Positions 1,663 to 24,695 of a stretch of DNA of 64,000 bases are shown here, piece by piece (the first letter of the stretch is position 1; every line of letters begins with the position of its first letter). The stretch is from assembly GCA_017499595.2 (NCBI GenBank), contig CM038999.1:3162001-3226000 (forward strand), read 5' to 3'. Under the pieces are notes generated by a model. It did no database searches. It was not told the DNA's origin and saw only the letters and a program-made list of their open reading frames with translations. The translations under genes and the position numbers were made by a program. Source of the stretch: Psilocybe cubensis (lineage: Eukaryota).

Positions 1663-2260
1663 ATGTGGTAAGTATAGTTCTACTGCTTTTCTCTCTCTGC
1701 CTCTCCTACAAAGTTCATCAGCTGGATTCTCCCAGTACCAGCGTGATTGAACCATTTCACAACTAGCTGATGCGAACCTTCACAGCAAACACATCTTGAA
1801 CGCCCAGGTGTCCATTCGAGCACCATGTTGCAAACAGTGGTATGACTGTCCTGAATGCCACGCCGAATCTCAGTCGCATAAACTGGCAAAGACCACCGAG
1901 ATGGTGTTCATGTGCAAGAAATGCAAAAAGGCCTTTAGAAAGGACATGACTGTGTACGAAGAGAGCGACGAATTTTGTCCACATTGCGATAATCACTACG
2001 TGTGTTTCTATGCATTGTCACTTGTGTATTTTTACTGACTAATCTCCCAAGGTTATCGAGGCAAAGACGCCTCAAGCCGTACTTGCGGTTGAAGGTGAAG
2101 ATGCAAGAGTGGATGCTCGGTACGACCTTTCTTCCTTGTACATCCATACCTTCTCTTACCCGACGTGAACAGCATGCTCAAAGACGATCGCATGAAGCAA
2201 ATTCAAAAACAATCAGTCTTCGATTTAGATGACGACGATTTTGTAGATCGCCTAGGGTAA
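1663..2260 (+). CDS. CHY-type zinc finger protein, 4 exons
   Basis: Exons 1663-1667, 1786-1999, 2052-2119 and 2173-2260 give MCKHILNAQVSIRAPCCKQWYDCPECH...CKKCKK...CPHCDNHY, the CHY Cys/His pattern. Confidence 0.85.
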
Positions 2261-2815
2261 TACACACTCGTGGAATGAAATGGCACACATACCCACAGTA
2301 TGCGCGACAAAAAAGACATCTACAAGAACTACGCAAATGTTTCGCAAACTTTCAGGATCCTTCCGATGCTAGCTTTCTAAATGCTTTCATCTTGCCCCAT
2401 GGACGAAAAATACCTCCTGTCGGGTAAAGGTACCCACTCAGTGAAACAAAAGTACGACGGGGTAAAATGGTTAAACCTATCAAGGAACCCCGCTCAGGTC
2501 TAGTGGTTGAGGCTTTTGCTGAGTCAGGCATTAAATCCAGCTGAATGTATTCGGTTGCTTGCCCTCCGTATATAAGTTCATGGTGTCGAAATACCCGTTC
2601 AAGTATCGGAAATGACTTTCTTTGTCCATTGTTGCGTGACTTTCTTTTACATTTGTCCAACATACTTACGGTCAGAGCTAGCACGTCCGAGCACGCCGGA
2701 AAATGATGCATTTTGACGATATTGTTATTTGTGTACACATTCAACTTCACCGAATCCACACAGTGGCGCTGAAGGCTGACGTATCACACCCAAACAACCA
2801 TATTCGACGTAAGAA

Positions 2816-5751
2816 TCAGTTCCAATTATATTGTGCATACAGCCCTAGAACCTCGTTAGATAAAACCGAGCTGTACAACGACACGTCGGCGGTGACGAAA
2901 GTTTTGTCCGTTTGCACTGAGTTAAGGATCTGTAACAGATCCGTTTCAATGAAGGACACAAAGATGAGGTCGATTGGCGCGTCGTCAGCCACTACCGGGG
3001 GAATGGAACTGATGAATTCTGGGATCGAGTACGAAGGTAATGGCGCATGGAGAATGTCGTCCCCGACCCCTGGGCAAGCCTGTTTGAAAGTCATCCAATT
3101 AGGTCGGTCAGGAATAGGATTCAACGAACTGGAATCTCACATCGGTGGTCACGTAACCCAGTGTCAAGTTCTGCGCTGCCCTTCGCTCAAGCCCACCTCT
3201 TCTGTCCTGCTCTGCCAGCCAGCGATTATAAATCATATCAACATAACCACTCCCATAAAGTTCACGCTCTCTTGACTTCAAAAGACCTCGACTTTGGTTT
3301 TCACCGGCGTCGTTGAGACCTTGGAGAACTTTGCTGGCCACGGAAAAAGGCACGTTAGGTATAAACAAAAATGTATTGACGAAGGGTGAAGCTGTTAACT
3401 GGTCGTTCCTGGTAAATGGGCCTGAATAGATGTCGAATCTCTGCGCGCCGGAGTTGGTAATCACAAGGTTAGGTATTGAGGCTCTGGTGTTGTTGATAGC
3501 CAGTGCGGCGGGGACGGCCTGGATATCCTGTCAGAACATGACACTTTTGTTCAAGGCTAACAAGCTCGCACATTTTCGATATATAGGCTAAGAAGGCTAC
3601 CATTGGACGGGAATGGTGCCCTGATTGAATACCATCCTGTGAGACAGACGTGCAACAGCAAATGATATTTGGCTTACTGGCTGATCGTGAAATCGTGTGG
3701 AGCAATTCCAAACTGGAAGGAAAGGTCGAATTTCTCCGCCAATTGCTTCAAACCCATGGTTATGTTCTCTCCTTGAAGGGTATCATAATCAAATTCGTTC
3801 TTCCCGGTGTGGAACTAATTATGAAAGTTCAGTATTTATGGTCAATCAATACTAAAGGAACTCAAACTTTCCTGGAAGGTGGCACGATTTGGGTCCAGAT
3901 ACCTGCGGCTGAACGTAATATTTTCTTTACTGCCCTGATGATCTAATTTGGCACCTGCATTTTAGATGAGTTATGGCTTTCAATTCTGAAGATTTACACT
4001 ACTAACTCATCCATCCTGTCCAAGAGAGTACTGAGTCGGTGCCAGTCAGGTAAGAGTACTGGACTTACCTATAGTTTCCATATACCTTCCACTTTCCAGA
4101 GACATAGAACGGCCATCAAGTTGAACTGTAAGAATTTTGGGAAATTTTAATATAGATGCCAGAGCTACACTGGTGAAATGGAAACATACGGCAATCACGG
4201 ATATGTGTGTGTCCTACAAAGGTATATCAACGGTGAGGAGGATTCTCTGGTTTGATAAGGATAGAGACATGCCACCAAAAATAAGAATTGGCGTTGTGGG
4301 GTGAACAGCACGAACAGCGTTAAAGACGATGGACCCTAGATATGCAGTCAATAAACGGGAAATATAATATTTTTCTAACAAACCCACATTCAGAGTCAAG
4401 GTCAATTGGCATATGCCTAAATTAAAACCCAGTTCTGGTATTTAAAGTTGTCGCAAAGGAGATTATTCTCACCCAACAAGCAAGAAAAAATCCGGTTCTT
4501 CTTCAATTGCATCTACAAACTAGGGAATGCGGTAAGATTGAATGAAATAAGGCTAAAGATATTAATCGAACCCAGTTTTCTTTGACCATGTCGGAAACCT
4601 TCTGGATTGTCGTATTGTGGCTGTTCCTAGTGAAGTTGAACAAAACACCAAGAGATGTGACTTTTCGGCCCCTATGTCATTCACCATGAATGATTCGATA
4701 AAACACTGGAAACAACTGCGTACTTTCTGGTCTTGAATTTCGCAAACCGTTCTGGCAGCAGATCAAACGATGTTCCAACTTTTGGGAGGTCGTAGACGCA
4801 CCTCCAACAGGGACGCTAACTGCTTGTCCGTTCTCGTTGAAAACAGTGATATTGGCGTTTGAGGAGAGGTACCGTCCCTTCAAGCTCGGTGCGAAGTTAC
4901 GGTGCCTTAAGATTAAACTTTCAGAAAATAGCAATTGAATTACCTGAAAACAGCTTACATGTCCAGAGCGTTGGCGTAGACGTACAACTCATGGCTGGAA
5001 CCGTATTGAAGTGTTGAAAATCAAGTCTTTTAAAAATGCGAAGACAATGACTGACTTTCCAATGGCCATCACATCGTATGGAAGTTGTTTGATGAATTGG
5101 TTGGCCTAAAGAAATTATCAGTATAAGAAAACCAGGATATCTAGAGTCACAAAAAGCCGTACATCATGCGCATCTATTCCACCAGCAGGAAACCCATCTG
5201 TCAAGCCAGTACCTGGAGACATGAATAATCACCAAGGGAATAAACTTCATCAATTTGGGTATAAAGCCCCTACCATCGTGGAGGTCACCAGAATCGACGA
5301 GTAATAGATCCACGTCGCGTTCCTTTGCAGCGTTATGAGTCATTTCACCAAGGACACCATATAAACACATCACACACGATGGCAATTTCTTTCATGTGCG
5401 CAACAAAAGACGCGAAATCTCCCAAGGTGCCACTGCAAATACCCAAATGAATCAAGGGTTCCGATCACAGACTCATGAAAGCTCTTCGATATTAACGTAC
5501 CTGTAATTAGGCTCCGGGTAGGATGTTTTCTGGTGGCCAAGAAGCCATCCATGACTGTCGGTGGTGTGGATGATGTTGATATCTCCCCAGTCGAGCTGGC
5601 GAGTCGGAGGAGGTAACGGGATAGATGGAGTAAACACCTTGGCGTGAAACTGAGTATGTCCATCCTCGCAGGCAGTAGCACTAGAAACCGCCGCTGCCAG
5701 TAACGCAACCAGCCCTAGACTCGGAGAAAAGCTAGGAATGAACATGGGCAT
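2816..5751 (-). CDS. secreted calcineurin-like metallophosphoesterase / 5'-nucleotidase family (YHR202W-like), paralogue 1
   Basis: Signal peptide followed by [28 protein letters not shown] and GGHTH motifs over many short exons. Ends ...[13 protein letters not shown]. Confidence 0.85.
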
Positions 5752-6260
5752 AGCTCTGACCCGTCAAGAATCACAAAGCCTGCACCTCCTGTAAGAGGGG
5801 AACTATGGAAGCGGTCGACCTGTAACCGTAAGCTAGCAGCTTCATTGTGTTTGAACTTCGCGTATTGTTCGTCTAGCTCTTTGGGGATATCATGACATGA
5901 TGATACGACGGATCAAAAAGTCATTATCCACACTTCCGATAAGATTATTAGGGTGAGTGTATATATTACTCAGAAAAATGAATGTGTAATGGATCGTATA
6001 CATATCGTTTTGCATCTGCAAATTAACTTTGAGATGCACTGTTTTTTATCCCTGTCAGTGAAACTGAAAAAGTATGGAAGGCAGCCTCAATATATTTGCT
6101 TTGCGTCACCTTGTATAGTCAGTGGTCACAGGAGAATTCGACAAGAAGCGTTATTGATTCATATTGTCAACATCATATCGATACATTTGAATTCACGCAA
6201 CTACTACAGCGGCACATAGTAGTCGCGTCGCCTACAACCAACCATATCCAAACGCACGGA

Positions 6261-6303
6261 TCAATTCCAAGCTCTTTGGGCAAACAAGCCAAGGGCTTCG
6301 TTA
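6261..6303 (-). pseudogene. detached last 13 codons plus stop of metallophosphoesterase paralogue 2
   Basis: The reverse strand reads NEALGLFAQRAWN*, matching the C-termini of paralogues 1 ([13 protein letters not shown]) and 3 ([13 protein letters not shown]). It joins in frame to 17508 when the insertion is removed. Confidence 0.9.
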
Positions 6304-6556
6304 CACGGCGGGACCTTCGCCACTGTTTTTTTGGCGTCGATCGGAGTTACAAATAAATACGTTTAGATTTACAAAATAAAACCAAATTTAATACTGAAAA
6401 TTAGCATCCGTCGGCGATGTGTTTAGCCGCGTTAAAAATCACAAAATAACCAGTGCGTCAATGAGTCTCTGTTTTATAGCTTCAAATCCACTTCCTTACC
6501 ACAGTCGTGTTCTGATTCTTTTTTTTTGTGGCAGCTAATTTGACGGCAGCCTAATA

Positions 6557-9500
6557 ATGGTCTTCGGCATTGACCCTGCTGGTTAGTGACATCACTCTCG
6601 GTCCACCTTACTACTCGGCTGAATTAAGAATAGTCGTTCAACGACAAGTTGTACACGGTCAAACACTCTATTATTGCCGGGTCTGTCAAGATACAAAAGG
6701 TCGCCAAAAACACCACCTCAATGAGCACTTCAACACCACAAAACACCAAACAGCTCTGCAGGCATTTCATACCAAAGAGAAATCCTCTGCTTCTTCACAA
6801 ACCTCGTTGCCACCGGTTAACAAGTCCCTTTTGTTAGAGGACGCCTTACGTGCAATTCTTGTGTCTGCATCTCGTCAACCACACCAGCCTTTGTATCCTG
6901 CCAATGACCCTCGCCTTTCTAGGGTCTCGGCTGCACCTTCTTCAACCACTTTGTCGACGGTCTCTCCACTCACCAGGATTGACTGGAATCTATTCAACGA
7001 TGATGAAATTATGTCGGATCCATCTCCCATCGACTTTGCGTCTGCCCAAATATGTCAAGCTACTCTGGATTTTCTAAATTCTAATAACGAGAGTGATGGA
7101 TCTGATGATGGTGGTGGCAGTCCTCCGCTTTCTGAGAGTAGCAATGAGCAAGCCAATTCAGGTGTGTAACGTCTAAATAGCGCATATTGTTTGAGTCCTT
7201 AACTTTTAATCAGACACTGAACAAGTTGATAATGAATCTTTGCCCCGAAAACGTATGCGCGGTATTCACACCGACCCGGCTGAAGCTCGAAAATGGTATC
7301 TGTGGATTGATAAAATTGTGAGTCTTTGCCTGCCATCGGTTAGATTTTCTGCTCAATCAATAAATCAGACTTGTTCTCTTGATGTTTTGATGCACCTTCC
7401 ACGATCACTATTTTCACGTCGTCAGCTGGATTTATTTCTCTGGCTACTGCGTATCAATGGCGTCAACGATGTGCCTAGCGTTAAGGCTATGCAAGGCATT
7501 AACAAGGCATTGCAGAATTTGTGTGGAATTGAGACGAAGGAGTACAAGGGCAAGCTGGGCAATGTATACTTTGTAAATTCTCTGTCTCAAATTCTTGCCC
7601 AGGTATGAATCTATATGTTACAAATGAATACTTTTGATTTCTAACCAATCTGAATAGGAAATGTCTAATCCTCAAGTCCGACCGTTCCTTTACTTCTATC
7701 CTGAAGATACGGGCAAATCGATTAGCGAAACCTATCAAGCTTCGGGTTGGCTGCGTGAAATCAATCCTGAGGATGGTACTCCAATGATACGGCTCAATAA
7801 TAATGATTTTTTCATCTTTGAACCAACTATGCTGATTGATGGACGTTGCTGCATTCCTATTCAATGGTTTCTCCGAGAAGGTGTATTTTATGCCAAAGCC
7901 TGGCTTATGGAAGATACTCCTAGTGGTTGGGTTGTGTCCGAAGATCGCGAAATCAAAATCACGCAAAGCCAATTGCTAAAGAATTTTATTCAGTTGTCAA
8001 AGGATCACTTGTTGTATAACTTGTCACACCCTTCACGAATATTTGGTATGGACTATATTTTATATATTTTATTCAATTTCTTATAAGTAAACAGGTGTGC
8101 GATCCATTCGGGGCCTGGGCTGTCGAAATGGACACGTACAGATCCTACTATTGGCAATCGTTGGCGTGTATTAGCAAAGGGATACCGAGTCTATTCTCTG
8201 CCGCTATGGATGTACTGTGACGATACGTCGGGAAACCAGTCCAAGAAGTGGAATAAGCACAACAGCTACCTATTTATTCTAGCTGGTCTTCCTCGCAAAA
8301 AGAGTTCACAAGAATACAATATCCATTTTCTATGCACTTCAGATATTGCGCCACCTCTAGAAATGCTTGATGGTGTGGTTGATCAACTTCAGTAAGTTGT
8401 CACTATCTTATATTTGCTGCACATATTCTAATCATTTTAACTTTAGATTGGCTCAAAAACATGGTATTTGGGTATGGGACTGTATACACAAAGAGGCCGT
8501 TATGATTTTTCCACCTGTATTTGCACTTCTGGGTGACAACCCTATGCATAGCGAGTTTGCTTGTCATATTGGAATGCAAGGGAAATATTTTTGCCAGATT
8601 TGCTGGGCCAAAGGAGTTGACAGTCAAGAATGCCCACACAAAAATCTTCCACATGACAGTTGTGCTCGACCCAACTTTCCTACCCTTTCAATCCATAGTG
8701 ATGTTGATTCTGAAGATACCTTCACACGGCCTTCTCACAAACGGCGGAGGTACAAGGAGTCTATGGAGTCAATGCTTCGAAGGGTTAGTGATTTTATAAA
8801 GGTGCGTAAAAGTTGTTTTATAACAATTTATATTTTAATCACCTTTGATTCTAAGATTGGCAAACCGCGTCGCAAGAAAGAGACTATGGCTACTCTTGAC
8901 TCTTTTTTGGAGCAAGCTAAGATGATTGGCACAAAATCAAAACTTAGAGCTGCAAAAACGGAAACTGGCATCAAGGATGTTTTCCAGGACTTCTTTATTG
9001 AAAAGCTTTTCAAATCTTATAAGGGAAAAGTTTCTACTCAGGCAAAGGAAAAAGCTCTTAAAGCGGCTGTCGATAAGCTTCCTGGAGACATCAAAAGTCC
9101 CGTATGGAAACTTGGTGCGATTGAAATATTTTGCTTTAATTTACTAGCTAAATCTATATTCCAGGCTTGGATCCTCATCAGGACACTCCCGTCAAAATTC
9201 TGCATGTTGTATTGCTGGGTTTCGTTAAATATTTTTGGAGAGACCTAGTTCAAAATCAGGTTACTCCTGCTAAAAAGCAAACTTTGATTATTCGTTTAAA
9301 CAGCCTCAGTGTGGCAGGTCTAGGTATACCCACATTAAATGGCTCCACACTAGTGAACTATGCCGGGTCACTAACTGGTCGCGATTTCCGAATTATTGCT
9401 CAAGTAGCGCCATTTGTCATCTACAACATGGTTTCTCAGGAGGTTTATGATGCATGGGTGTCCCTATCTACGTTAGTTCCAGTTATTTGGCAGCCAGCAA

Positions 9501-10971
9501 TCTCTAACATTGATGAGTACCTGGTGCGTCTTCATTGTGTCTTTCTTTAAATTGTTTTATTAAATTAAATCATGTTTTAGCCCAGATTAGAGGCCGACAT
9601 CAAATACTTTTTGTTGAAAACGGCAACATGGACCTGCGCGTGGTTTAACAAAACCAAATTTCACATTATTCTTCATCTTCCAGAACATGTCCGTCGGTTT
9701 GGGCCAGCAATATTGTTTGCCACGGAATCGTTTGAGTCATTCAATGCTATTATCCGTGCAAAAAGCATTCACAGTAATCACCAAGCACCTTCACATGATA
9801 TTGCCCGTGGCTTTGCGCAAGGCAATCGGATTCGCCATCTTCTTAGTGGTGGTTTTTTTCTTCCACAAGAGCTTTATCAGTCTTGGAAAAAGGATCCAAC
9901 AAATGTGGCTAATTCAGAGTGGCGCACTGCTGGACCTGGAGGTCTTCACCTTATTGATGCTCCAGACTCAACACCAGCTAGCTATTTGGGACTGCAGAAA
10001 CCTGCTGCCAGTAAGGCTGGTAAGTTATATTTACAAATCTATACTACTAGTGAGCGGTCTAATGCAATGGCCTAGGTTCATGCAAATCTAATGGCACAGA
10101 TCCTCAACCATTTCATCGCACATTATGTGGCCAAAAGCTTCCCAACATTGTGCTCAATACTGCAGCCAGCCAACAACTGTATGTAACCAATTCCCAGGTC
10201 TATCTGAGAAACGAGGATCTATGCACCATAGGACAGTTTGTCATTGCCCAAATTCATCCATCCCAGCCGCCTCTGATAGGGTGTGTTCGAGAGATCTTGC
10301 AGCAGGTTGGCTCTCCAAACCATCTTCAAAACCGGCCCGATGGTATTCTTATTCAAACAGCTTTACACCAACCGCCGTCGCACATATTGCCTGCTGGACA
10401 ACTGCAGCCAGTTTTTATGCTCCGTCTGATTCTTCAGCAGGAATGGTCCTTCATTCCGTGGAGTTGCCTTCTTTGCACCGTAAATACTCAACATGACTGT
10501 CAACGTCATGGATGCCAGGCAAATGGGCTACAATACATCTATCAAGAGCAAATACAAACTGATCAGACTAAGGCAACAATACTGCATCAAAACTCATTGG
10601 ATGATATGCTCCTCCTCAATATGTGTCAAATGCGCGATGCTGCTCATCTCCAAAGTTTTCACCTCCACTCTGCCCCGTTAAACGAAGATGCTATAATTCA
10701 AAGAAGTGTGGCTCAAGCCATTGTTCAACGGAAGGTAGGAGAAGCCTCCCAATCAAGTACTTCCAAACCAACCAAAACACCAACAGCCGCCTTGAGACAA
10801 CATGCCCAGAGCCCCTTGGGCACCCCTACTCTAGCAGCCACACCTTCTGGGGGTGTCAGTTTGCCTCAACATGCTTCAGCAGGAACATCTTCTGGAGGTG
10901 TTAGTTCACCTCGACGTAGCAGGCAAGCATCTGTGGTATATCCAGGTCAAATAACATTGGACTTTCGATAG
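6557..10971 (+). CDS. DDE transposase, CMC/EnSpm-like, with N-terminal C2H2-like zinc finger (multi-exon)
   Basis: Motifs CRVC...HFNTTKH, YCDDTSGNQSKKWNKH, LGDNPMHSEFACH...FCQIC, DPHQDTPVKILHVVLLG and KFHIILHLPEHVRRFGPAILFATESFESFN. The ORF fragments are linked by GT-AG introns. Frame continuity near 8046-8095 needs either a 42-nt intron or a 1-nt frameshift. Confidence 0.8.
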
Positions 10972-11024
10972 AAGTAAAACCATACTGTATTTATTTACTA
11001 GAATTCTACAAGAAGAATAGCAGA

Positions 11025-13497
11025 TCAAACTTGTCCAGAGACCTCAAACGCAGCTTTTGAAATAAGATCTTGTAAGGTGCACAACATGCCCAACCCCCTC
11101 TTCCATCGTGTTGGCCTAAGCTCCATTTGCTCTTGATAAAGCTTGGGGTTTGTACGTTTTAACTCCTTCTCGGTGCGGTAGCCATAATCAACCCATCTAA
11201 ACAGGCCACCTGAAGCATACTGAGTAAAGGAAGCACGCTCCTCTCCGTGTTCAATGCTGGTGTTTGAATGTTCTAGGACGGCGGACAGCATAAGGATGGT
11301 AGATCCTGCAGGGAACTCAATGGCCACTTTCAGGCCCCACACCACAAAGTGACCACCCTTTTTGGCATTGAATTTCCCTAAAGACTGGATGGCGCACCAG
11401 CCATATGGACAGTTTTTGATATCAAAATGCGGGATGGTGCAAACCACAGACCCTAGGTTGAAGGTGGCCGCCGGAAATATGCTGCGGCGAAACAGTCGGA
11501 CTAGCGTGGAGTCATTGGCGAATATCTTATCCATGTACAACTTATAGTGGTTGTACACTTTAGGGCTCCATGTAGCAAATGCACCTGTGGATGTGTTTAA
11601 AAACAGGTTCACAAAACAGGCATAGGAGTCACTTACTGCTGGCAAAACTGGCCATTTGTTGAATGCTTTCCGACTGCAAGAGCTTGGCAGTGATTTTGGG
11701 ATGGCGCTGGACGCGGTTGAGTGGAGAGTGTGTCCCTACACCGTGTGTAACGCCGATGTTGAGTGCGGGATAATGACCACGATTTTCTGAATAGTCTTTG
11801 TGTGTAAACACTGTGGTGTGTCCGGCCTCCCTCAGTAGATCAAATGCTTCCTCCGTGGCACGTTCGTATGCAGGGTCCTTAGGACGGCCTGCCAGAACCA
11901 TAAAAATACGTCCGTCTTCAGAAACAAACGGGACGGGGGTGCTATAGTGCATTAGCTTTAACTCCATCAAACTGAACAGATCAGAAGAGTTGTAACTCAC
12001 CATCTATCCCAAGGTATAATGCGGAACCCAAGGGCCTTGATGGCATCCAAGCTATATAGGTGACTTTTGTGGGGTTTTGTTGGTTTAGCACCATAGGCGC
12101 CTTGCGTGGCAGGCAAAGTGTCAAGCTTGACGTTGAGAGCCTCTGGCTGGCAGCTGGGAAGCATGCTTAAAAGACTGGGTTTTGGTGTGTGTCCGTGCTT
12201 ATTGTATTGTAACGTCCGCTGATACTTGCGGCTGCGATGACTGTTGGAAAGCCCATTGTATGGCCTTTTCAGGCTGGCGGTTTGCACGGATGGGTCTCGC
12301 TGAGGTAACGAAAGCGAAAGCTTGGTCGACGATTGCGAAGGTACAATCGGCGGTGTCAACATATTGTCAACCGATGGTGTCAACGCATCGTGGGCTGACA
12401 GCATCGACTCGCGGGTTGACGGGGTCGACGCGTTGTGGGCTGACGTCGTCGATTCGCGGGTTGACGGGATCGACACATCGTGGGCTGACGTCGTCGATTC
12501 GCGGGTTGACGGGGTCGACGCGTTATGGACTGACAGCATCGACTCGCGGGTTGACGGGGTCGACGCGTTGTGGGCTGACGTCGTCGATTCACGGGTTGAC
12601 GGGATCGACACGTCGTGGGCTGACGTCGTCGATTCGCGGGTTGATGGGGTCGACGCGTTATAGACTGACAGCATCGACTCGCGGGTTGACAGGGTCGACG
12701 CGTTGTGGGCTGACAGCATCGACTCGCAGGTTGACGGGGTCGATGCGTTGTGGGCTGACGTCGTCGATTCGCGGGTTGACGGCGTTGACACGTCGTGGAT
12801 CGACGTCATCGATTCACGGGTTGACGGGGTCGACACGTCGTGGATCAACGCCGTCGGCGTCGACGTATTGTTCGTAAACTGCATCCAGGTATCGTCCGTC
12901 GACCGATTCTTTGACGCATCGTGGATCGACGGCGTCCAGATGTTGTGAACGGATGGCGTCGACGTATCGTCGGTCGATGGAATCAAGACATCTATTGACA
13001 AGTACGTGAATGGGCAGATGACGAGTAGGCAAACATGGTGACTCACCTTGATCTAGATCTAACAAGTCTGTGTCCTCCCTTGCATCTGCTGCCCGCCAGG
13101 CAGAGATCAAGTCAAAAGCCAACGGATCCTCCCATACCTCAGGCTGACACTGGGCATACACCCTCCCAGATCATGTCTGCTTGAACAGATTTCCGATTTA
13201 AAACTTGGTATATGCATAGAAAAGTTTCCAAGGACGTACCGTATAGCGCGCCTATTGGCAGGCCGACATCTGTGCATGCAAAAACCAACGGTGAGCAGGG
13301 TTCTTGCAATCATGACACGCCCCAGCTCCTGCGTTGGCTGGCAGTTTGACAGACCCGGTCCAGGGGTGATCCCTCGCCTGGCAAGCCTCTAACCAACGCG
13401 AGAGCTGGGCCCTGTCGCGTTTCTGATATACGAACGTTTGCTTACCGGTGGGACGGGTATTTATACGAACGCGAATGAGGGGAATGTTGAACCTCAT
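11025..13497 (-). CDS. TET/JBP-family 2-oxoglutarate/Fe(II) dioxygenase; 5' exons appear to carry two stops
   Basis: Inferred exons 13497-13240, 13176-13047, 12991-12001, 11941-11637 and 11584-11025. The C-terminal domain has FPAATFN, PHFD (HxD), GGHFVVW, IEFPAGST, LEHSN (H) and ERASFTQY (RxS), the basidiomycete TET/JBP pattern. Confidence 0.85.
12387..12836 (-). repeat. 10 x 45-bp coding minisatellite (15-aa unit, e.g. ASTPSTRESTTSAHD)
   Basis: Visible in the DNA and in ORF 11997-13046. Units 5-7 recur almost exactly as units 8-10. Confidence 0.95.
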
Positions 13498-13507
13498 TAA
13501 ACAGATC

Positions 13508-13548
13508 AGGGGTCAGGTGATAGGGGTCAGGTGATAGGGGTCAGGTGA
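13508..13548. repeat. 3 x 14-bp tandem repeat AGGGGTCAGGTGAT just upstream of the TET/JBP gene
   Basis: Direct reading of the sequence. Confidence 0.9.
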
Positions 13549-13760
13549 CGTAGGTGGACGCGTTGCACCCGCGACACACTTCAACTGCTTTGACCTCAGA
13601 ACACCTGGTAATACGTCAGTCCGCTACAAACACAAACACCGCAGAGTAATGCAGGTCTCAGGAATACTACCCAGGTGCGTTATATTTCATGCATCCCTTT
13701 TGTAAGGCCAAATTGACAATATAGTATTGAAAGTGCTGCAGATTCTATTTCACAAACCGT

Positions 13761-14664
13761 CTAAACAATAGCAATGGGATTGTCAGACTGCAAAGGCTGA
13801 GGAGGAATGTAAACCGGTACGTTAATGCCATGGGACGTCAACGCTGCTTTCAGCTGTTGGCTCCAATGCCTCTCTTCTACCAGCATAATTGCTGTGTTGT
13901 GTTCCTGTCTGACATATGTCCTCAACTGCTCTTCTAGACCCTCCACCACCAACGTCAGGTATGCAGAGCGTTGTTTGGAATTCTTCACAGACCTAACCAA
14001 GTTTTTTACCGCCTTTTTAGTTGACTGGGCCTCCTGGCGTGCTGCGGCAAGGTCCAACCATGCCGTTCAAAGCTGATTCTTATAGGCCACAGCTTCTCTT
14101 GTTGCCTCGATGGCTATTTCACGCCAAACAGTAATCTCTGCCTCCAGATCGCGTCGGGAACGTGGATAGGCCCTGTTCAAGCTGATTGTGGTTTTGTTGC
14201 GGGGAACCTTGGAGGAATGGTCTAATAAAGTGGATGTGAGTGGTCTCAACCTTTCACAGCAATACTGTCAACTTATGAAACGCACCATTCTTTTCAGGCA
14301 TTTTGGATACAACCGGCTGGTCTTCGAGATCGCTTTGGCACGTTGATCCAGGGGTATCACCTAGTTGAGTTTGGATGGTGTAAGTTCAAGTGCATTCGTG
14401 ATAAGATTCTATTTACCAAGGCCGTAAAAACTGTAGTTGGGCAGACCATCAGTAACGTCAAGCCCTACGGGTGGGAGGTCAGGGTAGGTTATGCTGAGGT
14501 TTAACAAGGTTTGTTTACTGACCTGCATTCAGAGTTGACAGGTACTTTTTAGGTGCCTCATCGTCTTCATCTTGGTTGTGCTTCCTGAAACTTTTTTTTG
14601 GCGATGGAGTCTTAGGCGACAGCAGGCGGGATGGTAGACAATTGTCAAGAGTGTTGGTAGACAT
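13761..14664 (-). pseudogene. transposon cargo gene with coiled-coil C-terminus and an in-frame TGA
   Basis: Starts MSTNTLDNCLPSR with GT-AG introns. ORFs 14067-14249 and 13761-14057 share a frame and are separated by TGA at 14067-14069. The product is helical and charged (DLEAEITVWREIAIEATREA...LEEQLRTYVRQE). Confidence 0.6.
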
Positions 14665-14813
14665 GTTGAGCGGTTCAAGATAACGAAACCACACAAATAT
14701 CAGACTGATGGTTAAGGGAGTGAGAGAGTGAGACAAAAGGTGAGCAAACCTTTGGAATAACTTTGACGCCTCCTTTTTATGTGACGCATAGGTTTGTTGT
14801 TGTTGATGTGACA

Positions 14814-14871
14814 CGACGCGAATTGTTGATTGACCTCGAACGCGACGCGAATTGTTGATTGACCTCAAACG
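14814..14871. repeat. 2 x 29-bp tandem repeat between the divergent cargo genes
   Basis: CGACGCGAATTGTTGATTGACCTC(G/A)AACG occurs twice. Confidence 0.9.
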
Positions 14872-14962
14872 CGATGTGATTCGTTTGTTGTGGCAAACAT
14901 GGCAAATCAAACTTGGGGTATAAAAGCAAGGTAAGAGATGTTTGCTTGATTCTGAATCCACA

Positions 14963-16522
14963 ATGTCTCATTCTTCGATTGACCCAGCTTTTGCATCACA
15001 GCCTGTTTCTCGTGACGTGGACCGCCCAACTGGTACATAGCTGTTTATTGACAACCTGGTTCACCGATTCAACCTCACAAGCAACCACAGTGCAGATCTC
15101 ACTTTTCTTTATCAGGTAAACTTGTTTTTTACATAACGCCTACATCAAACTGCTTCTAACTCGTAAACCCGCAGATCTGTACAGCCGTGCCTGAAGAGCA
15201 ACCTCCTTAGACCGAAGTGATAAGTCGAATCATGATGTTGGCCTGCCAGTTTGGGGCCGAAGTTCGTCTGCATAAAGCACTGACTGCCACGCAAACACAT
15301 CTACAAGGACTCGGGCAGCTGAGCAGTTTTTTGGCTGATTATGAGCTGCAAAAAGATGAGAACTTTGTGTTATCAAATGCACAAAAGGTGAGTCATTGTT
15401 TGCCTTTATGAACACGGTGGTCTGAGCCAGCTTTTAGATGGCCATTAAATCAACCTGTATCAAAGAGCTTCTAAAGCCCTCTAGACAGTCCTTTAAGACG
15501 CTTCACATCGATGTTGAGGTGCGTTCTTTTCACTTTAATTGGCGGTCTAAAACAAATGCATTTGCAGGCAAAGATGAAAAAAAAGCCCGCAGACAATTAC
15601 CTTGACAACATCCTGAATCGGCTGGGACGTGAGGCCAAATGGATGGCGCATATACAAACCGTTTGTACAATTCAGAGAAACACGCTTCGAAAAGAGGTGT
15701 GTGGTTGTCCGGTTTACCATATGCCGTGTACTGATGTGTGAAATTAAAGATCATACAAAGCATAACTCCAGGCCCAAAGTTTACTTCTGTGCAAGAATTT
15801 GCGGCGGGCCTCATTGTGAAATATTGTCTGCCTACGTCAGAGTCTGGTGCAAATTCCAATACAGCTTACCTCTCAAAACATGTGTTATTGGTGTGTCTTC
15901 AATATTTCTGATTCAAAAAGTTTCACTAACGTGGCAATGTAAAGTGGCGGTTTTTCTGGGACCATTCATCTATGTTTTCGGCCTTTGAACTTGAGAAGGA
16001 TGACAACAACTCAGAAGAGGAGAACAATGACCAGGATTTTGGAACACCAAGCACCGACAACTCTAGCGATTCGGGTCATTCTGCTACCAAAAACGTAAAT
16101 TGCAAAAAACAAACATTCCCGCTGGGAAAACTCGCGGTCGGGTGGCTGATGGCGAAGACTATTGGTCCAAAGTTGATCAATGGCTCAAGAGGCTTGACGA
16201 TGAGCTGGGAGATAATACAGCTGAGTTGAAACAGTCCGAGTTTTCTCTTGTATTCTCAATGAGTTATGCTAAGCTTGTGAATAGATTTATTGCTGAATGT
16301 CTGGAGATGGACTCTCTCAGGACCAATAAAGGCTTAGATTTCTCAAGCCACCCTTCCGAGCGCTCTTTTACCAGCCCTAGCGATGTCACATCCGACCCAC
16401 AACCCACCACTATACAGTCCTTTCCTTCCAATTCTTCTTCGAGGCTGCCTGAACCTCATTTAAATTTTGGTAATGCAATTGCTCAATTATTTAGTGGTCC
16501 TTCAACAGGTAGACCTTTTTAG
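14963..16522 (+). pseudogene. uncharacterised spliced transposon cargo gene with two in-frame TAG stops
   Basis: ATG at 14963. Intron 15116-15174 keeps the frame into ORF 15217-15411. TAG stops lie at 15038-15040 and 15208-15210. Later exons include GEDYWSKVDQWLKRL. Confidence 0.6.
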
Positions 16523-17001
16523 CCACTAGACTCCACTACAATATAGTTATTAATTATGCGGAAATGTATGTGTAAACGCAACTAAATCTGAAGTTGATGT
16601 TGAGAACATGTAGCCCCTAATATTCAGTTTGCTAGTGTTTGGCACCGGTGATCATTTGATCAACAGCAACGAGTTATCGCTTTCATCTTTTCCTCCATGA
16701 TCTCGCACAGCGGCACCGTGTTTTCCGCCGTGCATTGTTAAGAGATCCAGCCCTTTCATGTACTAAAAGCCATGCACTGGAAAGATCCAGATTCCCAATA
16801 TGTGGGAACGCGTTGAGCGGCATGGTTGGGCATAGTTTTTTTTTGGTGACTGACATTTGATTTGTAGATCGCACACTGGTGCAAGAACCTGCTTATTGCT
16901 GAGTATTTTTAGACAGCTATCCATGGCGAAAATTACTTATTTTAACACCACAGGTTCAAGAATATGTGCTTTGAAGTTTGACAAGGTCCAAGAACACCAT
17001 T

Positions 17002-17155
17002 GCCGGAATCGATAGCCATCGTTGACACCATAGTTTGGCTCTGGAGAATGGGTGATAGTTGGATGCGCAACACAACATCGTCAACGCCATAGCCGGAATC
17101 GATCGCCATTGTCGACACCATAGTTTGGCTCTGTGGAATGGGTATTTGTGGATGC
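17002..17155. repeat. imperfect direct duplication of about 65 bp, 90-bp period
   Basis: GCCGGAATCGAT..CCAT.GT.GACACCATAGTTTGGCTCTG at 17002 and at 17092. Confidence 0.85.
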
Positions 17156-17342
17156 AATAACCCAGTGAGTACTTTATAGGATAGACGTTAGATTAGTAGT
17201 TATTTAGCTTCAGCTTCATGCTCAATATATGGTGTTTTATTATAACCTAATCTTGTATGAAAGACCAAAAATAAAATTTCACAATGATATTATACTGTGA
17301 ATACATATGAAAAGCCTACAAAAAAATATGTATTTGCTAGAA

Positions 17343-17461
17343 TGTGGCTGACACAAACGGTGCTTGGCACTTATGTGGCAGCCACATGAATTTCGGCCTG
17401 TTGTGTCACCCACTGATATCGGATGGAGGTGGCAGACACATGTTTATTTGTGTCTGACATA
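17343..17461. repeat. subterminal 13-bp quasi-palindromic repeats at the right end of the transposon
   Basis: TGTGGCTGACACA (17343), TGTGGCAGCCACA (17374), TGTGTCACCCACT (17402), GGTGGCAGACACA (17428), TGTGTCTGACATA (17449). Confidence 0.8.
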
Positions 17462-20356
17462 CATCGGCCAAACACATCCAAAAATGTGTCCAGCGGCCGC
17501 CTGTGTAGCCAGAATCGGGCTATATAACGACACATCCGCGGTGGTGAACGTCTTGTCCGATTGCACTGAGTTGAGAATCTGTAACAGCTGTGTTTCGATG
17601 AAATCAACAAATACAAGGTCGATAGGTGCATCGTCAGCTACTGTGGGTGGCACAGAACCGATAAAGTCGGGTGTCGGGAAGAAAGGTAATGGAGCATGGA
17701 GAACATCGTCTCCGACACCTGGGCAAGCCTGGAGCGGTCATAAACGTCATCAGTGGCACGAAACAGAGAGTAATATTCTGATTGCTTACATCGCTGGTAA
17801 CGTATCCAAGTGTCAAGTTTTGCGCGGCCCTTCTCTCGATCCCGCTCCTTCTATCCTGTTCCTCCAGCCAGCGGTTGTAAACCATATCGACGTGACCGCG
17901 ACCATAAAGCTCACGCTCTCTCTCCTCCAAAAGTTCTCGTCTTTCGTTCGCACCGGCTTCATTGAGGGCGGGGAGAACTTTGTTGGCAATGGAGAATGGC
18001 ACATTAGGGATGAACAAGAACGAATCGTCGAATGGCGACGCTGTCAGCTGGTCGTTCTTGGTGAAAGGTCCGGCGTATATGTCAAATCGCTGCGAGCCCG
18101 AGTTGGTAATCATGATGTTGGGTATCGAAGCTCTGGTGTTATTGATAGCTAAAGCAACGGGGACGGCCTAGGACCTTCGTTAGAACATCATTCGAATACA
18201 CAATCATTGAGCTCATACATTTTCAATGAACAGACTAAGAAGAGAATCGTTGGATGGGAATGGCGCCCTGGGTAATATAATTGTATGAGATCGGCCATAC
18301 AGTAATATAACAAGTTGGCCTTACTGGCTGATTGTGAAATCGTGAGGAGCAGTTCCAAATTGGAAGGAAAGATCGAATTTCTTGGCTAGATTGTTCAATC
18401 CTTTAGTTATGCTCTCTCCTTGAAGGGTGTCGAAATTGAAGCTGTTCTTTCTGGTATGGAACTACAACAACAGGATTGAAGCCTTATAACAAAGTACATG
18501 AACGAAAACGCAAGCTTACCTCAAAAGTTACTCGATTGGGGTCAAGATACCTACGACTGAACGTGATGTTCTTTTTGCTCCCCTTTTTATCCAATTTGGC
18601 GCCTGCGTTTAGGTTAGATACGCGTCTTTAACTCCAAAGGGTTTGGAAACTCACTGAGCCACCCTGGAAAAGCGGAATAATAAGTACTTCAACTCGGCCT
18701 GAGATATGAAAGTTGAATTTACCAATGGTTTCCATGTACCTTCCACTCTCCAGTGACATTGAACGACCATCGAGTTGAACTTCAAAAAAGTCAGTGTTCA
18801 AGCAAATATAACACTTGCAACAATATGGACATACGGCAGTCGCGAATATGGGTGTGTCCTACAAATGAATGAAGCTCAAAAACCATCATAAACAATAATG
18901 GTAGAACCTACCACCAAGGATCAGAATGGGCGTGGTGGGATGAACAGCACGAACAGCATTGAAAACAAGAGGCCCTGTTAGATATACATGATCAGACTTG
19001 AGTCTTGTTGGCGCATTCAGGAGACTCACAATCGTCACGAGCAATTGGCATATGCCTTGAAGGAGGTCAGAAGCGAAGATAGCCCTTTTTAACTACAAAC
19101 TCACCCAACGAGCAAGAAAAAGTCTGGCTCTTCCTTGATAGCTTCTGCAAACTAAGTGGCACGTTTTAAGATAAAAAAAAAGACTCAAGATGATATATCC
19201 ATACCCAAGTTTCTTTCACCATATCCGAAACTTTCTGCACCTTCGTATTGTGGTCGTTTCCAGTGAAATCGAACAAAACACCGAGAGAAGTGACTTTACG
19301 ACCCCTATGATATAGTTGAATAATTGCTAAAATAATTCAAAGAAACAGCGCACTTTCTCGTCTTGAACTTAGCGAATCGTTCTGGAAATATTGTAAGTTT
19401 CATGCAGCATATCAGGACAAAATGACTCACCTCCAACAGGTACACTGACTACCTGTCCTTTTTCATTGAGAACCGTAATGTTGACGTTGGAGGACAAGTA
19501 GCGTCCCTTCAGACTCGGTGCAAAGTTTTGATGCCTAAATTCGTATGGTTAGGAATCAGGACTGAATTGGTCGATAGCGGCGTACATGTCGAGGGCATTG
19601 GCATAGATATACAGCTCGTGACTTCGATGGAATGCGGGTTCAGAAAACAATATGTATATGTCTAAGAGACAATAAAGACTGACTTTCCGATGGCCATTAT
19701 ATCGTACGGCAATTGTTTGATGAATTGGTTGGCCTAGAAAATCTCATAATTAGCTGATGCTGTGAGCGCAATCAAACAGCACCGTACATCATGCGCATCA
19801 ATGCCACCAGCTGGGAACCCATCGGTCAAGCCAGTGCCTATGATATTTGCCAACATTTAGAAATGTAGACTCGAATAGTCGATTGATTTTTCCGCACCGT
19901 CATGAAGGTCACCAGAATCGACAAGTAAAAGATCTGTGTCGCGTTCCTTCAAAAAGTTATTTGCAACTTATCTAGGAAGAGACAAATATTCGACGTACAA
20001 TGGCCAATTCCTTCATATGGGTCACAAAAGATGCAAAGTCCCCAAAGGTACCGCTAACAGTACACAAGAGCATAAGCATCATTATCCATAGCATCAAAGT
20101 AAAGCGACACGTACCTGTAATTAGGCTCTGGGAAAGACGATTTCTGATGTCCAAGAAGCCATCCATGACTATCAGTGGTGTGGATAATGTTGATGTCGCC
20201 CCATTCGAGCTGGCGCGTTGGTGGGGTCAACTGGACAGACGGGGTAGTCCTCTTCGCGTGATCGTGAGCATGACCATCTTCACACGCGCTGGTCGTAGAA
20301 ACCGCGGCCAAAGACCCAAGAAGTCCTAGGACGAAGCTGGGTGTGAGCAACAACAT
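17444..20356 (-). CDS. metallophosphoesterase paralogue 2, C-terminus replaced by transposon-derived sequence
   Basis: Same motifs and exon structure as paralogue 1. After YSPILA it reads into the element ([20 protein letters not shown]). Confidence 0.85.
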
Positions 20357-21605
20357 ACTCTCGACTCTAGGCTCTGAATGGGCAACCCGTCAAGGAAGCG
20401 AGTGAACACCACGTACAACGAAGCGATCGGTCGGGGAAGCTTCTTATATAAACATTTCTATCCCCCTTCCAAAACACAACGTTAACTATGGAGAGAATCA
20501 CGATGGCGCGGGATAAAAATAGAACGTTGTCGACGATAGAGCATATGGTGCGTTGGCTTTTTCGCATCTTTTTTCGTCCGCGTAATAATGTGTTTATGCC
20601 AAAATTTCCTTATCCCTGGACACGGAGCTGTCAGATAATGTCAGATGGGGCGCAGACGATGTGGAAAGTGGATGTTAAAGCCGACCTGATTGGACACCTT
20701 TGGAAGGTAAAACTGCTTGGAGACGCTAGCCGACATCTCATTGTGAAACCGTGCCCAACACGAAACGCCTACAAGTTTTCGACTTGCCCATATCGAGAAA
20801 GATCTTTTATTCATTCGCAAGTCCTCGTCTCCGTATATCATGCGCCTATAAACACGAACACGAACACGGAATCTTCGGCGTTAGATTACTGGAAGGAGGC
20901 TACAATTCCCATGTCCCATGCAGATCCAATGTCCCCACTTGCACCCGAGGCGAATGTGACACCCTCAAGCGTACACTTTGGACAGCCGGAGACTGCGTAG
21001 TAGTAACCTCGACCTCGTAGTTGCTAGATGTCAAGATGCCACAATAATCCCGCCCTCCATAAGTACGCCGCCTTCCCATGATACGAAGATTTTTTTCGAT
21101 AAATTGGAAACGCAACGCACGTTTACATCAGTGCGCTACTTATGCACACTCTCGCTCACGTTCGTTTGCCATGTTTTTTTGACAGCCACCTCCGCCCTAT
21201 CTTCATACCTGTCCCAAACCTGTCCCAAGTTCTTCAGCTGACCACGACACCCGAACCAAGTCGTTCGAATCATAACTTCATCACACTGACAGTGCCAAAA
21301 CTGCTTTACAGAGAGAAACGCACATGTATGTTGCGCCTTTATTGATTTGTATCAAAGCAAAAGGCATTAAGGTAGCGTTAAAAAGTAGAACGAACAGATG
21401 TCAGAAGGGTGATGAGTCTCAAGGCTCAAGATCATAAATATCAATGACGTAAAAACGTGATCCCAAGTCAGAATCAAACTCCGACACTACTCCGTCCCAT
21501 GACTCCCATCAAGCATGACACAACACGCGTCGCGTCGCGTCTCATTCCGCCCCTAAACGCGGCATCACACCAACACCCACCAACACCTAGGTCATCGCAT
21601 CCAAC

Positions 21606-24600
21606 TCAATTCCACGCAGCCTGCGCATACAGCCCCAAAACCTGCGTCGCCAGCACTGGGCTGTACGAAAACACATCATCAGGGGTATACTCCGTCGTCG
21701 TCTGTGCCGAATTCAAAATCTGCAGTACCGCCGGCTCGTCAAAGTCGCGGAAGACGAGGTCGATGGGCGCGTCGTCCGCCAGCTGCGGCGGGACCGAGCT
21801 GACGTAGTCCGGAACATCAAACGAGGGTAGAGGCGCGTGGATGATGTCGTCGCCTATTCCTGGACAAGACTACCGACATAGTTGTAGTTGGGTGAAATGA
21901 TAGAACGCGGGGGAGAAAATCTTACGTCGGAGGTGACATATCCAAGCGTCAAATTCGCCGCTTCCCGCCTCTCAACACCATACCTCCTAAACGCCTCATC
22001 CAACCTACGCTTATACTCCAACGTCCCATGATAATGCCTCTTCACATTCGCCTGCTCAGGGTCATTCAGCGCAGGGACAACCCGATTCGCCAGCCCAAGC
22101 GGTACATTAGGGATGTACACAAACCCATTAGTAAAAGGTGAAATTGTCAGCTGGTCGTTCTTTGTGAATTCTCCAGCGTAGATGTCGAAGCGCAGCGATC
22201 CGGTGTTGGAGATGATGAGATTGGGGATTGAGGCTCGGGTGTTGTTGATGGCTAATGCTACTGGAACGGCCTAGATCGGTCATTCAGTTAAATGTACAAC
22301 TGTAAGTTTGAGAAGAGGGTTCGGCACCTGTTCAATAAAGAGACGCGGAAGAGACGTCTCAGAAGTGTACGGCGATCTTACAGAAAGAATAAGTTTAAAG
22401 CAACATAAATCCACAAAGCGGGAAAAAGGCCTACCGGCTTATAGTAAAATCATGCGGCGCAGTACCAAACAAGAACGACAAATCAAATCGCTGAGCCAAA
22501 GCGTTCAGGCCCTTCGTGATACTCTTCCTCAGAGGTGTATCAAAGTTGTGTTCAGTTTTTCTCGTGTGGAACTAGAAAATAAAAGTATAAACTTTATGAA
22601 AAATGAAATGAAGGAAAAAAAAGTGTACTTCATACGTGACACGATTGGGATCAAGATATCTACGGCTGAACGTGATATTCTTCGTACTCCCTTTCTTATC
22701 AAGTTTCGCGCCTGTAAATGCATCAGTCAACTCCAGAGACCATACATCATCCAAAAAGTACAACGTACTTAGCCATCCTATAAAACCATAAATCAGCTTA
22801 AGATACAAGCAGAAACCCACTCTCCACTTTCGAACTCACCAACAGTTTCCATATACCTTCCACTCTCCAACGACATCGAACGACCATCAAACTGCACTAC
22901 AAAAAAATAAAAAAAAAGTCTATCAGACACCCCAAACAAAAACAGAAGGTCGTGTACATACAACAATCACGAATATGTGTATGGCCTAGCCAAAGAATCG
23001 CATAAGAGTCACAATCGACACCAAAACTAAAGATACGCATACCGCCAAAGATTAGAATTGGGGTGGTGGGATGGAGCGCGCGGATAGGATTGAACACCAG
23101 AGGCCCTATACCAAAAAATCAGCTCCAAGTTGGCACTCTCCAAAATGATATCTCTAAGAACACACAATCATCACGCGAAACAGGCATATGTCTATACAAT
23201 CAACATCAGATCTTTTTAACCTAAAACGAGGGGGGGAAAGGTGGACTGACCCAACAAGCAAGAAAAAGTCCGGTTCCTCCTGAATAGCTTCATGAAACTA
23301 CCACCAGATCATCAATACCGCGCGCTATACCTCCCAAAAACCAATAAACCTACCCACGACTCCTGAACCATATCCACCACCTTCTGCACCGTAGTATTCC
23401 GATCATTCGACGTAAAATCAAATAGAACACCCAACGACGTCACTTTCCGTCCTCTACCAACCAAAAACCAAAAGCAAAACAAAAGCGTTACAAAAAAAAA
23501 ACCAAAAGGCTTAGTATGTATATACGAAATATAGAAGCATTATAATTTATATACTTACTTTCTAGTTTTGAACTTTACAAACCGCTCTCCGATGGGCACA
23601 GAGACGACCTGGCCTGCGTCGTTGAGGAGGGTGATGTTCACGTTCGAAGTGAGGTATCGGCCTTTCAGACTCGGAGCGAAGTTTTGGTGCCTGTACACCG
23701 CGATATCGATTAGAATTTTGAGTGTTTGTTGAGTATCAGAATGGACATACATATCGAGCGCGTTGGGATATAAATACAGTTCGTGGCTACACAATTTTTA
23801 GATATACGAGGCTAGGTTAGAAGACGAAGACAGGTATGAATGCTTACTTTCCAATAGCCATCACATCGTAAGGAAGTTTTTTAATAAACTGGTTAGCCTA
23901 CCCAAAAAAATTCAGTCAGCGCAGACATCCGATCTGGTCCCTAGGACAATAAGCGTACATCATGCGCATCGATGCCACCAGGTGGAAACCCATCCGTCAG
24001 CCCAGTTCCTAAAATCAAAAAAGCCTCTCTCAGTACGGCACTTTAGACTGACACACAGAAAAACCAGAAAATAACATACCATCGTGCAAATCACCCGAAT
24101 CAATAAGCAGAAGATCCACGTCGCGTTCCTACGTCATCGTCATCGTTCAACAAAAGAGCACAAAGTCAGCAATCTCTTCTTTACAGCACATCAAGCAACG
24201 CAAAAGTTGGAAAGGTTAAATTAGAAACGAAGCTTACAAGTGCCAATTCCTTCATATGCGCCACGAACGATGCAAAATCTCCAAAATCACCACTAGAGGA
24301 AGCAGAAGAAAAAAAAATCACGATCAATACTACACATCCAAGAGTCCCCGCCCTCAAAGTCTAAAGACTCAAAGACTCAAAGACGAAGATCTGAAGTAAA
24401 CCAGAACCACATACCTATAGTTAGGCTCCGGGAAGGACGCCTTCTGGTGGCCCAACAACCACCCATGGCTATCCGTCGTATGTATAAAGTTGATATCGCC
24501 CCATTCGAGCGGGCGCGTCGGGGGCGCGAGCAGGATTGACGGCTCAGCTCGTCGCGCCGCGGCGTGAGTATGACTGTGTCCGTGATTCAGAGCGTGCTCG

Positions 24601-24695
24601 TGATCGTTGCTGTCGTGGTCTGGGCATGCAGAGACTACCGGGAAAGAGCGCAGGAGCTGGAGCAGCGCCAGGGTATAGGTGGTAGGTAAGAGCAT
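21606..24695 (-). CDS. secreted metallophosphoesterase paralogue 3
   Basis: Signal peptide, His-rich linker, [19 protein letters not shown] and GGHTH motifs. Ends [13 protein letters not shown]. Confidence 0.85.

Follow-up and report, generated by a model that had tools for sequence, protein, structure and literature searches.

How a gene comes to have its last codons lying about 11 kb away from the rest of its coding sequence is the question raised by a locus of Psilocybe cubensis, located in a stretch of 64,000 nucleotides (assembly GCA_017499595.2, contig CM038999.1, positions 3,162,001 to 3,226,000 of the forward strand). This whole stretch is hereafter called the window, and all positions are given in its numbering. 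Three paralogous genes stand in tandem on its minus strand, each with the C-terminal domain PF21953 ("NAD nucleotidase C-terminal"). The body of the middle gene, i.e., paralogue 2 (17508-20356), is parted from its native end by 11,202 bp (6304-17505, described on the plus strand) with the ends CAC...GTG (CACGGCGGGACC / GGCCGCCTGTG) and a TA on both sides. This intervening DNA is very probably a cut-and-paste transposon of the CMCT clade (CACTA/EnSpm-Mirage-Chapaev-Transib), RAG1/Transib/CACTA-like in kind, whose recent insertion hit a TA within the final exon of paralogue 2, the middle one of the three secreted 5'-nucleotidase-like genes.

Paralogue 2 encodes a secreted metallophosphatase or 5'-nucleotidase-like protein (Pfam PF21953, E 1.4e-36) and is 100% identical to the public model P0050 ("Secreted protein [Psilocybe cubensis]"), for which both PF00149 and PF21953 are precomputed. 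Besides these two domains, the metallophosphatase assignment draws on a GHTH-type motif (GHTHIRDC), and the closest solved chain to the host protein is 3c9f_A (E 8e-91), named "5'-nucleotidase" by its depositors.

Read on the plus strand, the left junction (6303/6304) runs through ...gcttcgtTA into the element start CACGGCGGGACC, whose nine-base left end is CACGGCGGG, while the right junction (17505/17506) runs from the element end GGCCGCCTGTG, or in its shorter form CCGCCTGTG, into TAgccagaat.... Of the two copies of the target TA, the left one is at 6302-6303 and the right one at 17506-17507. When the slices 1-6303 and 17508 onward were joined by script, the minus-strand gene tail read ...SPILANEALGLFAQRAWN*, collinear with the C-termini of paralogues 1 and 3. 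The displaced native end of paralogue 2 occupies 6261-6303 (minus strand), namely 13 codons (NEALGLFAQRAWN, 6264-6302) and the stop TGA (6261-6263). In the occupied allele, the tail is instead derived from the insert (17444-17507, minus strand) and comprises 20 residues and a stop at 17444-17446. The sequence-only reading of the window had proposed that the insertion site could be rebuilt to the base by joining 6303 to 17508, that the joined tail was collinear with both neighbouring paralogues, that 13 residues were replaced by 20 transposon-derived ones and that the native 3'UTR was displaced by 11 kb. All of this held: the junction letters and the joined frame are as described, the tails of both neighbours align, the exchange of 13 native residues for 20 insert-derived ones was found at the codons given above, and 11,204 bases lie between the gene body of paralogue 2 and its native end and 3' flank. 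The public model P0050 follows another route, splicing to 17250-17203 within the element, and so carries a foreign tail of 31 residues versus the 20 codons of direct read-through. As such, it is a public chimeric host-transposon protein, in which 13 native residues out of about 627 are lost.

The rejoined reading can be set against the wider family of host proteins. Among the 120 homologues listed, 86 sequences have at least 560 residues, and 81 of these 86 full-length proteins carry the C-terminal motif G[LIVFC][YF]A[QEAL]xxWN, which the rejoined reading also has; a Psilocybe cyanescens protein ends in ...SPILANEALGLYAQSAWN, and this tail is taken as the ancestral state. The five sequences that depart from it are P0050 itself, three in which the motif is slightly changed or extended, and P0135, which has a different tail. 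The match of the rejoined tail to the family is far beyond chance, and what the reconstruction brings back is among the best conserved parts of these proteins.

If the element was inserted recently, other strains should hold the undisturbed site, and it was there that the sequence-only reading had proposed to look for it. Among the runs sharing sampled words of 17508-20400, four had all of them and are possible sources of the window, five had a fraction of 0.91-0.92, two marked "RNA?" had 0.38, and two were raw reads. Reads or contigs of four runs (X5, X8, X10 and X14), from four other studies, were placed on window positions 5000-19000. The exact joint predicted, 6301>17506, was present in all four, with 11,204 bases skipped, two letters (TA) fitting either side and none in between. 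In X5, a single contig of 8,562 nt spans 5000-6301 and 17506-19000, and in X8 a single contig of 27,506 nt joins the same pieces. In X14, the joint is crossed by 26 raw reads with 19 start places, to which short-overhang reads can be added, i.e., eight whose loose ends behind 6303 start the right flank and six whose loose ends before 17506 end the left flank. In X10, a contig of 1,514 nt has 6211-6301 fused directly to 17506-17727. Seven intervals of 51-119 bases within paralogue 2 are missing from this contig; six of these intervals have CT..AC ends (GT..AG on the coding strand), and the contig, from a run marked "RNA?", is therefore spliced RNA. It runs from the body of paralogue 2 through the native tail to 6211, which shows expression of paralogue 2, native C-terminus included, in the X10 strain. 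X10 is the only RNA-like run examined, and it carries the empty site; a second contig from it shows paralogue 1 likewise spliced. Of note, the interval 18602-18722 is skipped in the X10 contig in a manner not seen at the other six introns, as its ends are CT..TA and eight other letters stand in its place; either alternative splicing of paralogue 2 or a difference between strains may lie behind this.

Two other histories for the locus bear on these data. In the first, a copy of the transposon was misplaced into the gene during assembly. The occupied junctions are read from one assembly, and P0050 lies on the same 4.33 Mb contig and is hence not independent of it. A mis-join would nevertheless not set a complete element with exact ends between two TA copies where the empty site has a single one, nor would it leave both flanks colinear to the base, and such an artefact is judged very improbable. 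In the second, the insertion is old and has been precisely excised in the four other strains. Cut-and-paste elements do excise, and the comparison covers four other runs; still, all four show a single TA, no letters between the two sides and no footprint. Moreover, the intact tail is the norm of the family (81/86) and is also present in the P. cyanescens orthologue, and the window copy is near-identical to several others, which points to recent movement. An old insertion followed by precise excision is thus given just as little credence as the misplaced copy, and the recent insertion of a complete element is retained.

That the inserted DNA is a transposon in its own right, with ends at the positions given, can be seen from its other copies. 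X5 and X8 each hold three contigs of identical range, namely 6302-12424, 12805-14843 and 14850-17507, which stop on the outer sides at both TA copies. Flanks unlike that of the window stand beside the left end in three contigs of X5, four contigs of X8 and 27 reads of X14 (agreement 0.7), and 24 reads of X14 show unlike right flanks. Since the contigs stop at the TA copies and the flanks differ, other copies must lie elsewhere, each with a TA beside the same ends. The features expected of cut-and-paste transposition were accordingly found, i.e., the same ends in independent copies, a duplicated TA and an empty site with a single TA. Within the window, no second copy of the element was detected by blastn or tblastn. 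Read inward, the two ends have about nine bases in common with one inserted or deleted base (CAC-GGCGG versus CACAGGCGG), and neither a repeat search of the window nor a local alignment between the outer 400 bp of each end yielded a long terminal inverted repeat.

The same contigs bear on whether the 11.2 kb is one element or a composite, for example a transposase element joined by separately inserted dioxygenase DNA. The contigs of X5 and X8 do break at 12424/12805 and 14843/14850, and the right-hand 2.5 kb has no recognisable gene, as a composite would allow. These breaks, however, coincide with tandem repeats of 45 bp (12283-12912, minus strand) and 29 bp (14811-14868), at which short-read contigs normally break. 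In addition, all three pieces recur in X5 and X8 with the same outer ends, the 11,204 bases are missing as a single block from the empty site, and a second dioxygenase copy, 98% identical, is present on another contig of the same species. A composite origin is consequently regarded as highly unlikely, and the stretch is treated in what follows as a single transposon.

The transposase gene (6557-10971, plus strand) encodes a DDE enzyme and has several short introns, and every exon is 100% identical to P0001, a P. cubensis protein of 1,283 residues. Relatives are widespread in agarics, with at least 47 among the matches listed. Across 28 aligned sequences, D458/D459, D545, C564-x2-C567, H867-x3-H871 and E888/E891 show little or no variation, and all of them are retained in the window copy. 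No match to a Pfam transposase family was obtained with the ORFs (open reading frames) of the window or with five relatives, and a sequence-profile search of the PDB with the transposase found nothing. At the level of the fold, the AlphaFold model of a relative, P0002 (56% identical to the window protein; mean predicted local distance difference test score, pLDDT, 68.9), was compared by Foldseek, and its best match was RAG1 (9jpu_A, E 7e-6, about 520 columns); HzTransib was matched at E 6.7e-3. A beta-rich part of the same model (P0002 residues ~830-980, corresponding to window positions ~10100-10970) matches the BAH domains of DNMT1 and of plant histone readers (E 9e-4, about 150 columns), and, going by this modelled fold, the C-terminal region of the transposase may be a chromatin-reading module.

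The CMCT clade is described by Kojima (2025; PMC12730594), a source available here in part, as having 5'-CA..TG-3' ends and target duplications of 2-5 bp, and an arrangement of acidic, C(2)C and H(3)H motifs is assigned there to this clade and to RAG1. The element shows CAC...GTG ends, a 2-bp TA duplication, D/C(2)C/H(3)H/E motifs and, in the P0002 model, a RAG1/Transib-like fold, and is placed in the CMCT clade on the grounds of these ends, duplication, motifs and fold. It adds one more member to an already described transposon clade, and the insertion event is of a known and ordinary kind. By analogy with RAG1 and Transib, the transposase would cut at the CAC ends and integrate with a two-base stagger, the repair of which would produce the TA duplication.

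Among the systems already described, none coincides with the element in every respect. In the available part of PMC12730594, Table S1 gives for EnSpm-22_AB of Agaricus bisporus a 5' end, CACGGCGGG, that by eye has the same nine bases as the window element, the two being compared on this 5' end only. Both come from an agaric host, carry a dioxygenase and measure about 9-11 kb; the dioxygenase of EnSpm-22_AB is listed there as PE type, with the hallmark HxE, whereas that of the window element has HxD. EnSpm/CACTA proper makes a 3-bp duplication according to the same source, while the duplication here is of 2 bp, with the flanks tTA / TAg. ESTA (EnSpm-like transposons with TA duplications), also described by Kojima (2025), resembles the window element in its TA duplication, its CAC... 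ends, its transposase that is RAG1-like by structure comparison and its TET/JBP cargo, but it is described in that source only from rust fungi (Pucciniales), and the comparison covers these features. Plavaka A and B of the Agaricomycetes (Iyer 2014, as cited in the available part of PMC12730594) are likewise large agaric CMCT elements with 2-3 bp duplications, some of them with TET/JBP; their ends are TGT..ACA (A) and CATCA..TGATG (B), as against CACGG... / ...CTGTG here. Kyakuja/Zisupton elements with an AG-type TET have in common with the window element a dioxygenase fold like that of CcTet, but the Kyakuja duplication is of 7 bp versus 2 bp here, and the window transposase differs from theirs in having no KDZ Pfam domains and a RAG1-like fold. 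Presence or absence of DNA transposons between strains, as observed here, is known from another agaric, Marasmius oreades (PMC9674265, available in part), though there the variants are mostly hAT and LINE, and one Plavaka-related variant was judged to involve no excision.

Other transposon classes were considered and rejected. Tc1/mariner would fit the TA duplication, but there is no Pfam match of that kind and the fold of the transposase is RAG1-like. For KDZ, neither PF18758 nor PF18803 was found in the window ORFs or in five relatives, and the duplication is of 2 bp, not 7-8. For a Helitron, none of the three possible end placements yields 5'-TC...CTRR-3' between A and T. For a Starship or other tyrosine-recombinase element, no such ORF is present.

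The second recognisable gene of the element (11025-13269, minus strand) encodes a TET/JBP-like 2OG-Fe(II) dioxygenase, with its catalytic domain at 11028-12003; the public model P0169 extends it to 14664. Pfam Tet_JBP (PF12851) is matched at E 4.8e-5 and 23.1 bits, under the gathering cut-off of 34.9. P0170, a dioxygenase 98% identical to the window copy on another contig of the same species, provides the residue numbering: H494, D496 and H547, the HxD...H iron triad, and R558, the Arg that binds 2OG, are invariant or nearly so among the relatives and lie in a double-stranded beta-helix. A sequence-profile search of the PDB with the dioxygenase gave nothing relevant. The P0170 model, with pLDDT >90 over most of residues 320-620, matches by fold CcTet (E 6e-12), NgTET1 (9e-9), TET2 (1e-7) and CMD1 (6e-7). 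A homologue, P0187, has the dioxygenase fused to KDZ transposase domains. As for the TET type, PE, which is the one reported for EnSpm and Plavaka of agarics, is ruled out, the window dioxygenase belonging to an HxD family while the PE hallmark is HxE in the available part of PMC12730594. With respect to the AG type as represented in that same part, the positions 5 and 11 residues past the first His are N and C here versus G/S and D there and in CcTet, in a comparison made by eye. Judging from these residues, the dioxygenase may be a separate TET capture. Following Kojima (2025) and work cited in the part available, the enzyme would oxidise 5-methylcytosine on the element and thereby counter methylation-based silencing.

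Whether the element is already on record was also considered. "Psilocybe" does not occur in the available part of the supplement of Kojima (2025; PMC12730594), and the transposase motifs had no match there, which carries little weight since the entries show only their first 400 characters. Neither a TA duplication in an agaric nor an HxD dioxygenase in a CMCT element appears in the Kojima (2025) catalogue as far as available. Literature on P. cubensis transposable elements contained nothing on the window element by title or abstract, and a literature search on Psilocybe with TET JBP found nothing. It is put forward tentatively, as a proposal that has somewhat less than even chances, that the element represents an uncatalogued and currently transposing agaric lineage, RAG1-like, TA-duplicating and with CACGGCGGG ends, whose HxD-type TET, not of the PE type and with N and C in place of the AG-type residues, reflects an independent TET capture by a CMCT transposon.

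The relatives within P. cubensis further inform on recent activity. A transposase cluster at 90% comprises 13 distinct models, all from P. cubensis, which fall into two types. Type B has eight members, including the window copy, with ...CAIHSGPG, AKGYRV and DTPVKILH; the other five, type A, have ...RIFGVRSNSGPG, AKGHRV and DTPVEILH. The E of DTPVEILH is present at that place in 23 of 27 relatives from the wider family. Type B is also marked in an intron region (8046-8106, plus strand) where the window copy is without one A after 8105; this extra A is present in the X5 and X8 contigs and in 20 of 44 X14 reads. According to frame arithmetic, a canonical intron of 49 bases (8046-8094) keeps the frame with the extra A, and without it the frame is kept only via an acceptor seven bases upstream (an intron of 42 bases, as in P0191 and P0193) or via a longer skip (P0001), so that three separate ways around the missing A are found among the public gene models. 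For the type B models, GenBank accessions number 4 (P0191), 2 (P0192) and 1 (P0193), with 0-2 mismatches per stretch relative to the window copy, which suggests that a single assembly contains about seven near-identical copies. Because of the missing A and the changes to K, Y and L at conserved positions, the window copy may depend on the transposase of another copy. Under the tentative proposal of a currently transposing lineage, type B, marked by G:C-to-A:T changes at conserved residues and by a 1-base deletion, would nevertheless occupy about seven loci with an identical transposase, in which case sister copies mobilise it or the changes are tolerated.

Some further differences between copies were recorded. 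Those to X14 are one-sided, with 92 positions having A or T in the window and G or C in the reads (A>G 43, T>C 49) and 18 the reverse (G>A 12, C>T 6). The observed/expected ratio of CpG reaches its lowest value of the window in the transposase region (0.65 versus 0.9-1.1). The pattern of bases suggests deamination-type mutation in the lineage of the window copy, and type B has the appearance of a copy in which many G:C-to-A:T changes accumulated before it spread. Fourteen bases at 13508 are absent from the X5 and X8 contigs and absent in 0 of 21 X14 reads, and after 16088 one more A than in the window is found in X5, in X8 and in 10 of 23 X14 reads.

Several observations weigh against reading the locus as the recent insertion of a CMCT transposon with a dioxygenase. 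The occupied allele is known from one assembly and from public gene models drawn from that same assembly. The terminal inverted repeat amounts to only ~9 bases with one indel, so that the ends are defined by the reads and not by a repeat. The window copy itself is without the A after 8105, in addition to having K, Y and L at the conserved E, H and P positions. Lastly, the dioxygenase stays below the Pfam cut-off, and Tet_JBP is reached at E <=0.01 in only 1 of 21 relatives.

What the insertion does to paralogue 2 follows from the position of the stop codons. The reading frame would enter the element, run for 20 codons and end, with the conserved tail of 13 residues, the stop codon and the 3' flank shifted 11.2 kb away. 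That this chimeric allele gives a working, or even newly useful, secreted enzyme with an insert tail of 20 or 31 residues is unlikely, albeit well above the artefact and excision histories in probability. It would be in line with the loss of only 13 of about 627 residues, with the untouched catalytic metallophosphatase exons and with the acceptance of a chimeric model by automatic annotation. Across the Agaricomycetes, however, 81 of 86 homologues have kept the tail that is lost here, and with the native 3' flank 11.2 kb off, the transcript must end inside the element. Because the lost tail is so strongly conserved, a damaged allele is likelier than a useful new one. Most likely, then, as far as conservation can tell, the occupied allele is impaired and persists as a strain-specific polymorphism, and where the sequence-only reading had described a host gene "given a new C-terminus", "damaged" is probably the better word.

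The two neighbouring genes are relevant to such persistence. Paralogue 1 (about 2816-5751, minus strand) has all its exons, including a micro-exon of 23 nt for GHTHIRDC, and its native tail; paralogue 3 (about 21606-24695, minus strand) also has all its exons, keeps GHTHIRDC and has its native tail. Since both keep all exons and the conserved tail, and since paralogue 1 is spliced in X10, redundancy within the array, as the sequence-only reading had suggested, is a plausible reason for the insertion to persist. Persistence would be explained just as well by clonal cultivation or by a second nucleus in which the site is empty. A distance of 553 bp separates the left end of the element from the start codon of paralogue 1, and for this reason the promoter of paralogue 1 may be affected by the insertion. 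The public model P0056, 100% identical to paralogue 1 and on the same contig as P0050, omits the 23-nt micro-exon for GHTHIRDC and reads intron there (4150-4230), while the DNA is intact. Another public model, P0049 of Psilocybe cyanescens (1,212 residues), is an annotation merge of a paralogue-3-like and a paralogue-2-like gene; as these two are fused in it, the tandem array predates the split between P. cubensis and P. cyanescens.

The remaining parts of the element are less telling. Ahead of the catalytic domain, in the N-terminal stretch of the dioxygenase gene, the 45-bp tandem repeat encodes about 14 copies of a serine/threonine-rich unit of 15 residues, and the window copy (P0169-like) and P0170 do not have the same number of repeats. 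A helix-rich ORF region (13767-14664, minus strand), without Pfam match, either forms a gene of its own or belongs to the 5' portion of P0169 as modelled. The right-hand 2.5 kb (14968-17443) holds ORFs at 15530-15865 (minus strand) and 16067-16522 (plus strand), both without match, as well as a direct repeat of 61 nt in two copies (16993-17143; start-to-start spacing 90). Over the 3.5 kb of the element outside its two recognisable genes, ORFs had no match in Pfam, and the ESM Atlas gave no usable match for ORF 16067-16519.

Taken as it stands, P0050 is a public chimeric protein, part host gene and part transposon, and deserves a flag to that effect. The allele behind it is natural, strain-specific, probably disabling and easily genotyped, and could be used as a marker or, being a knock-out provided by nature, to probe the function of the array. 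The element, for its part, makes a tractable case for asking whether TET enzymes borne by transposons shield these elements from methylation. An occupied site and an empty site that are both exact to the base are direct evidence of recent movement of a TET-carrying, RAG1-like transposon in Psilocybe.

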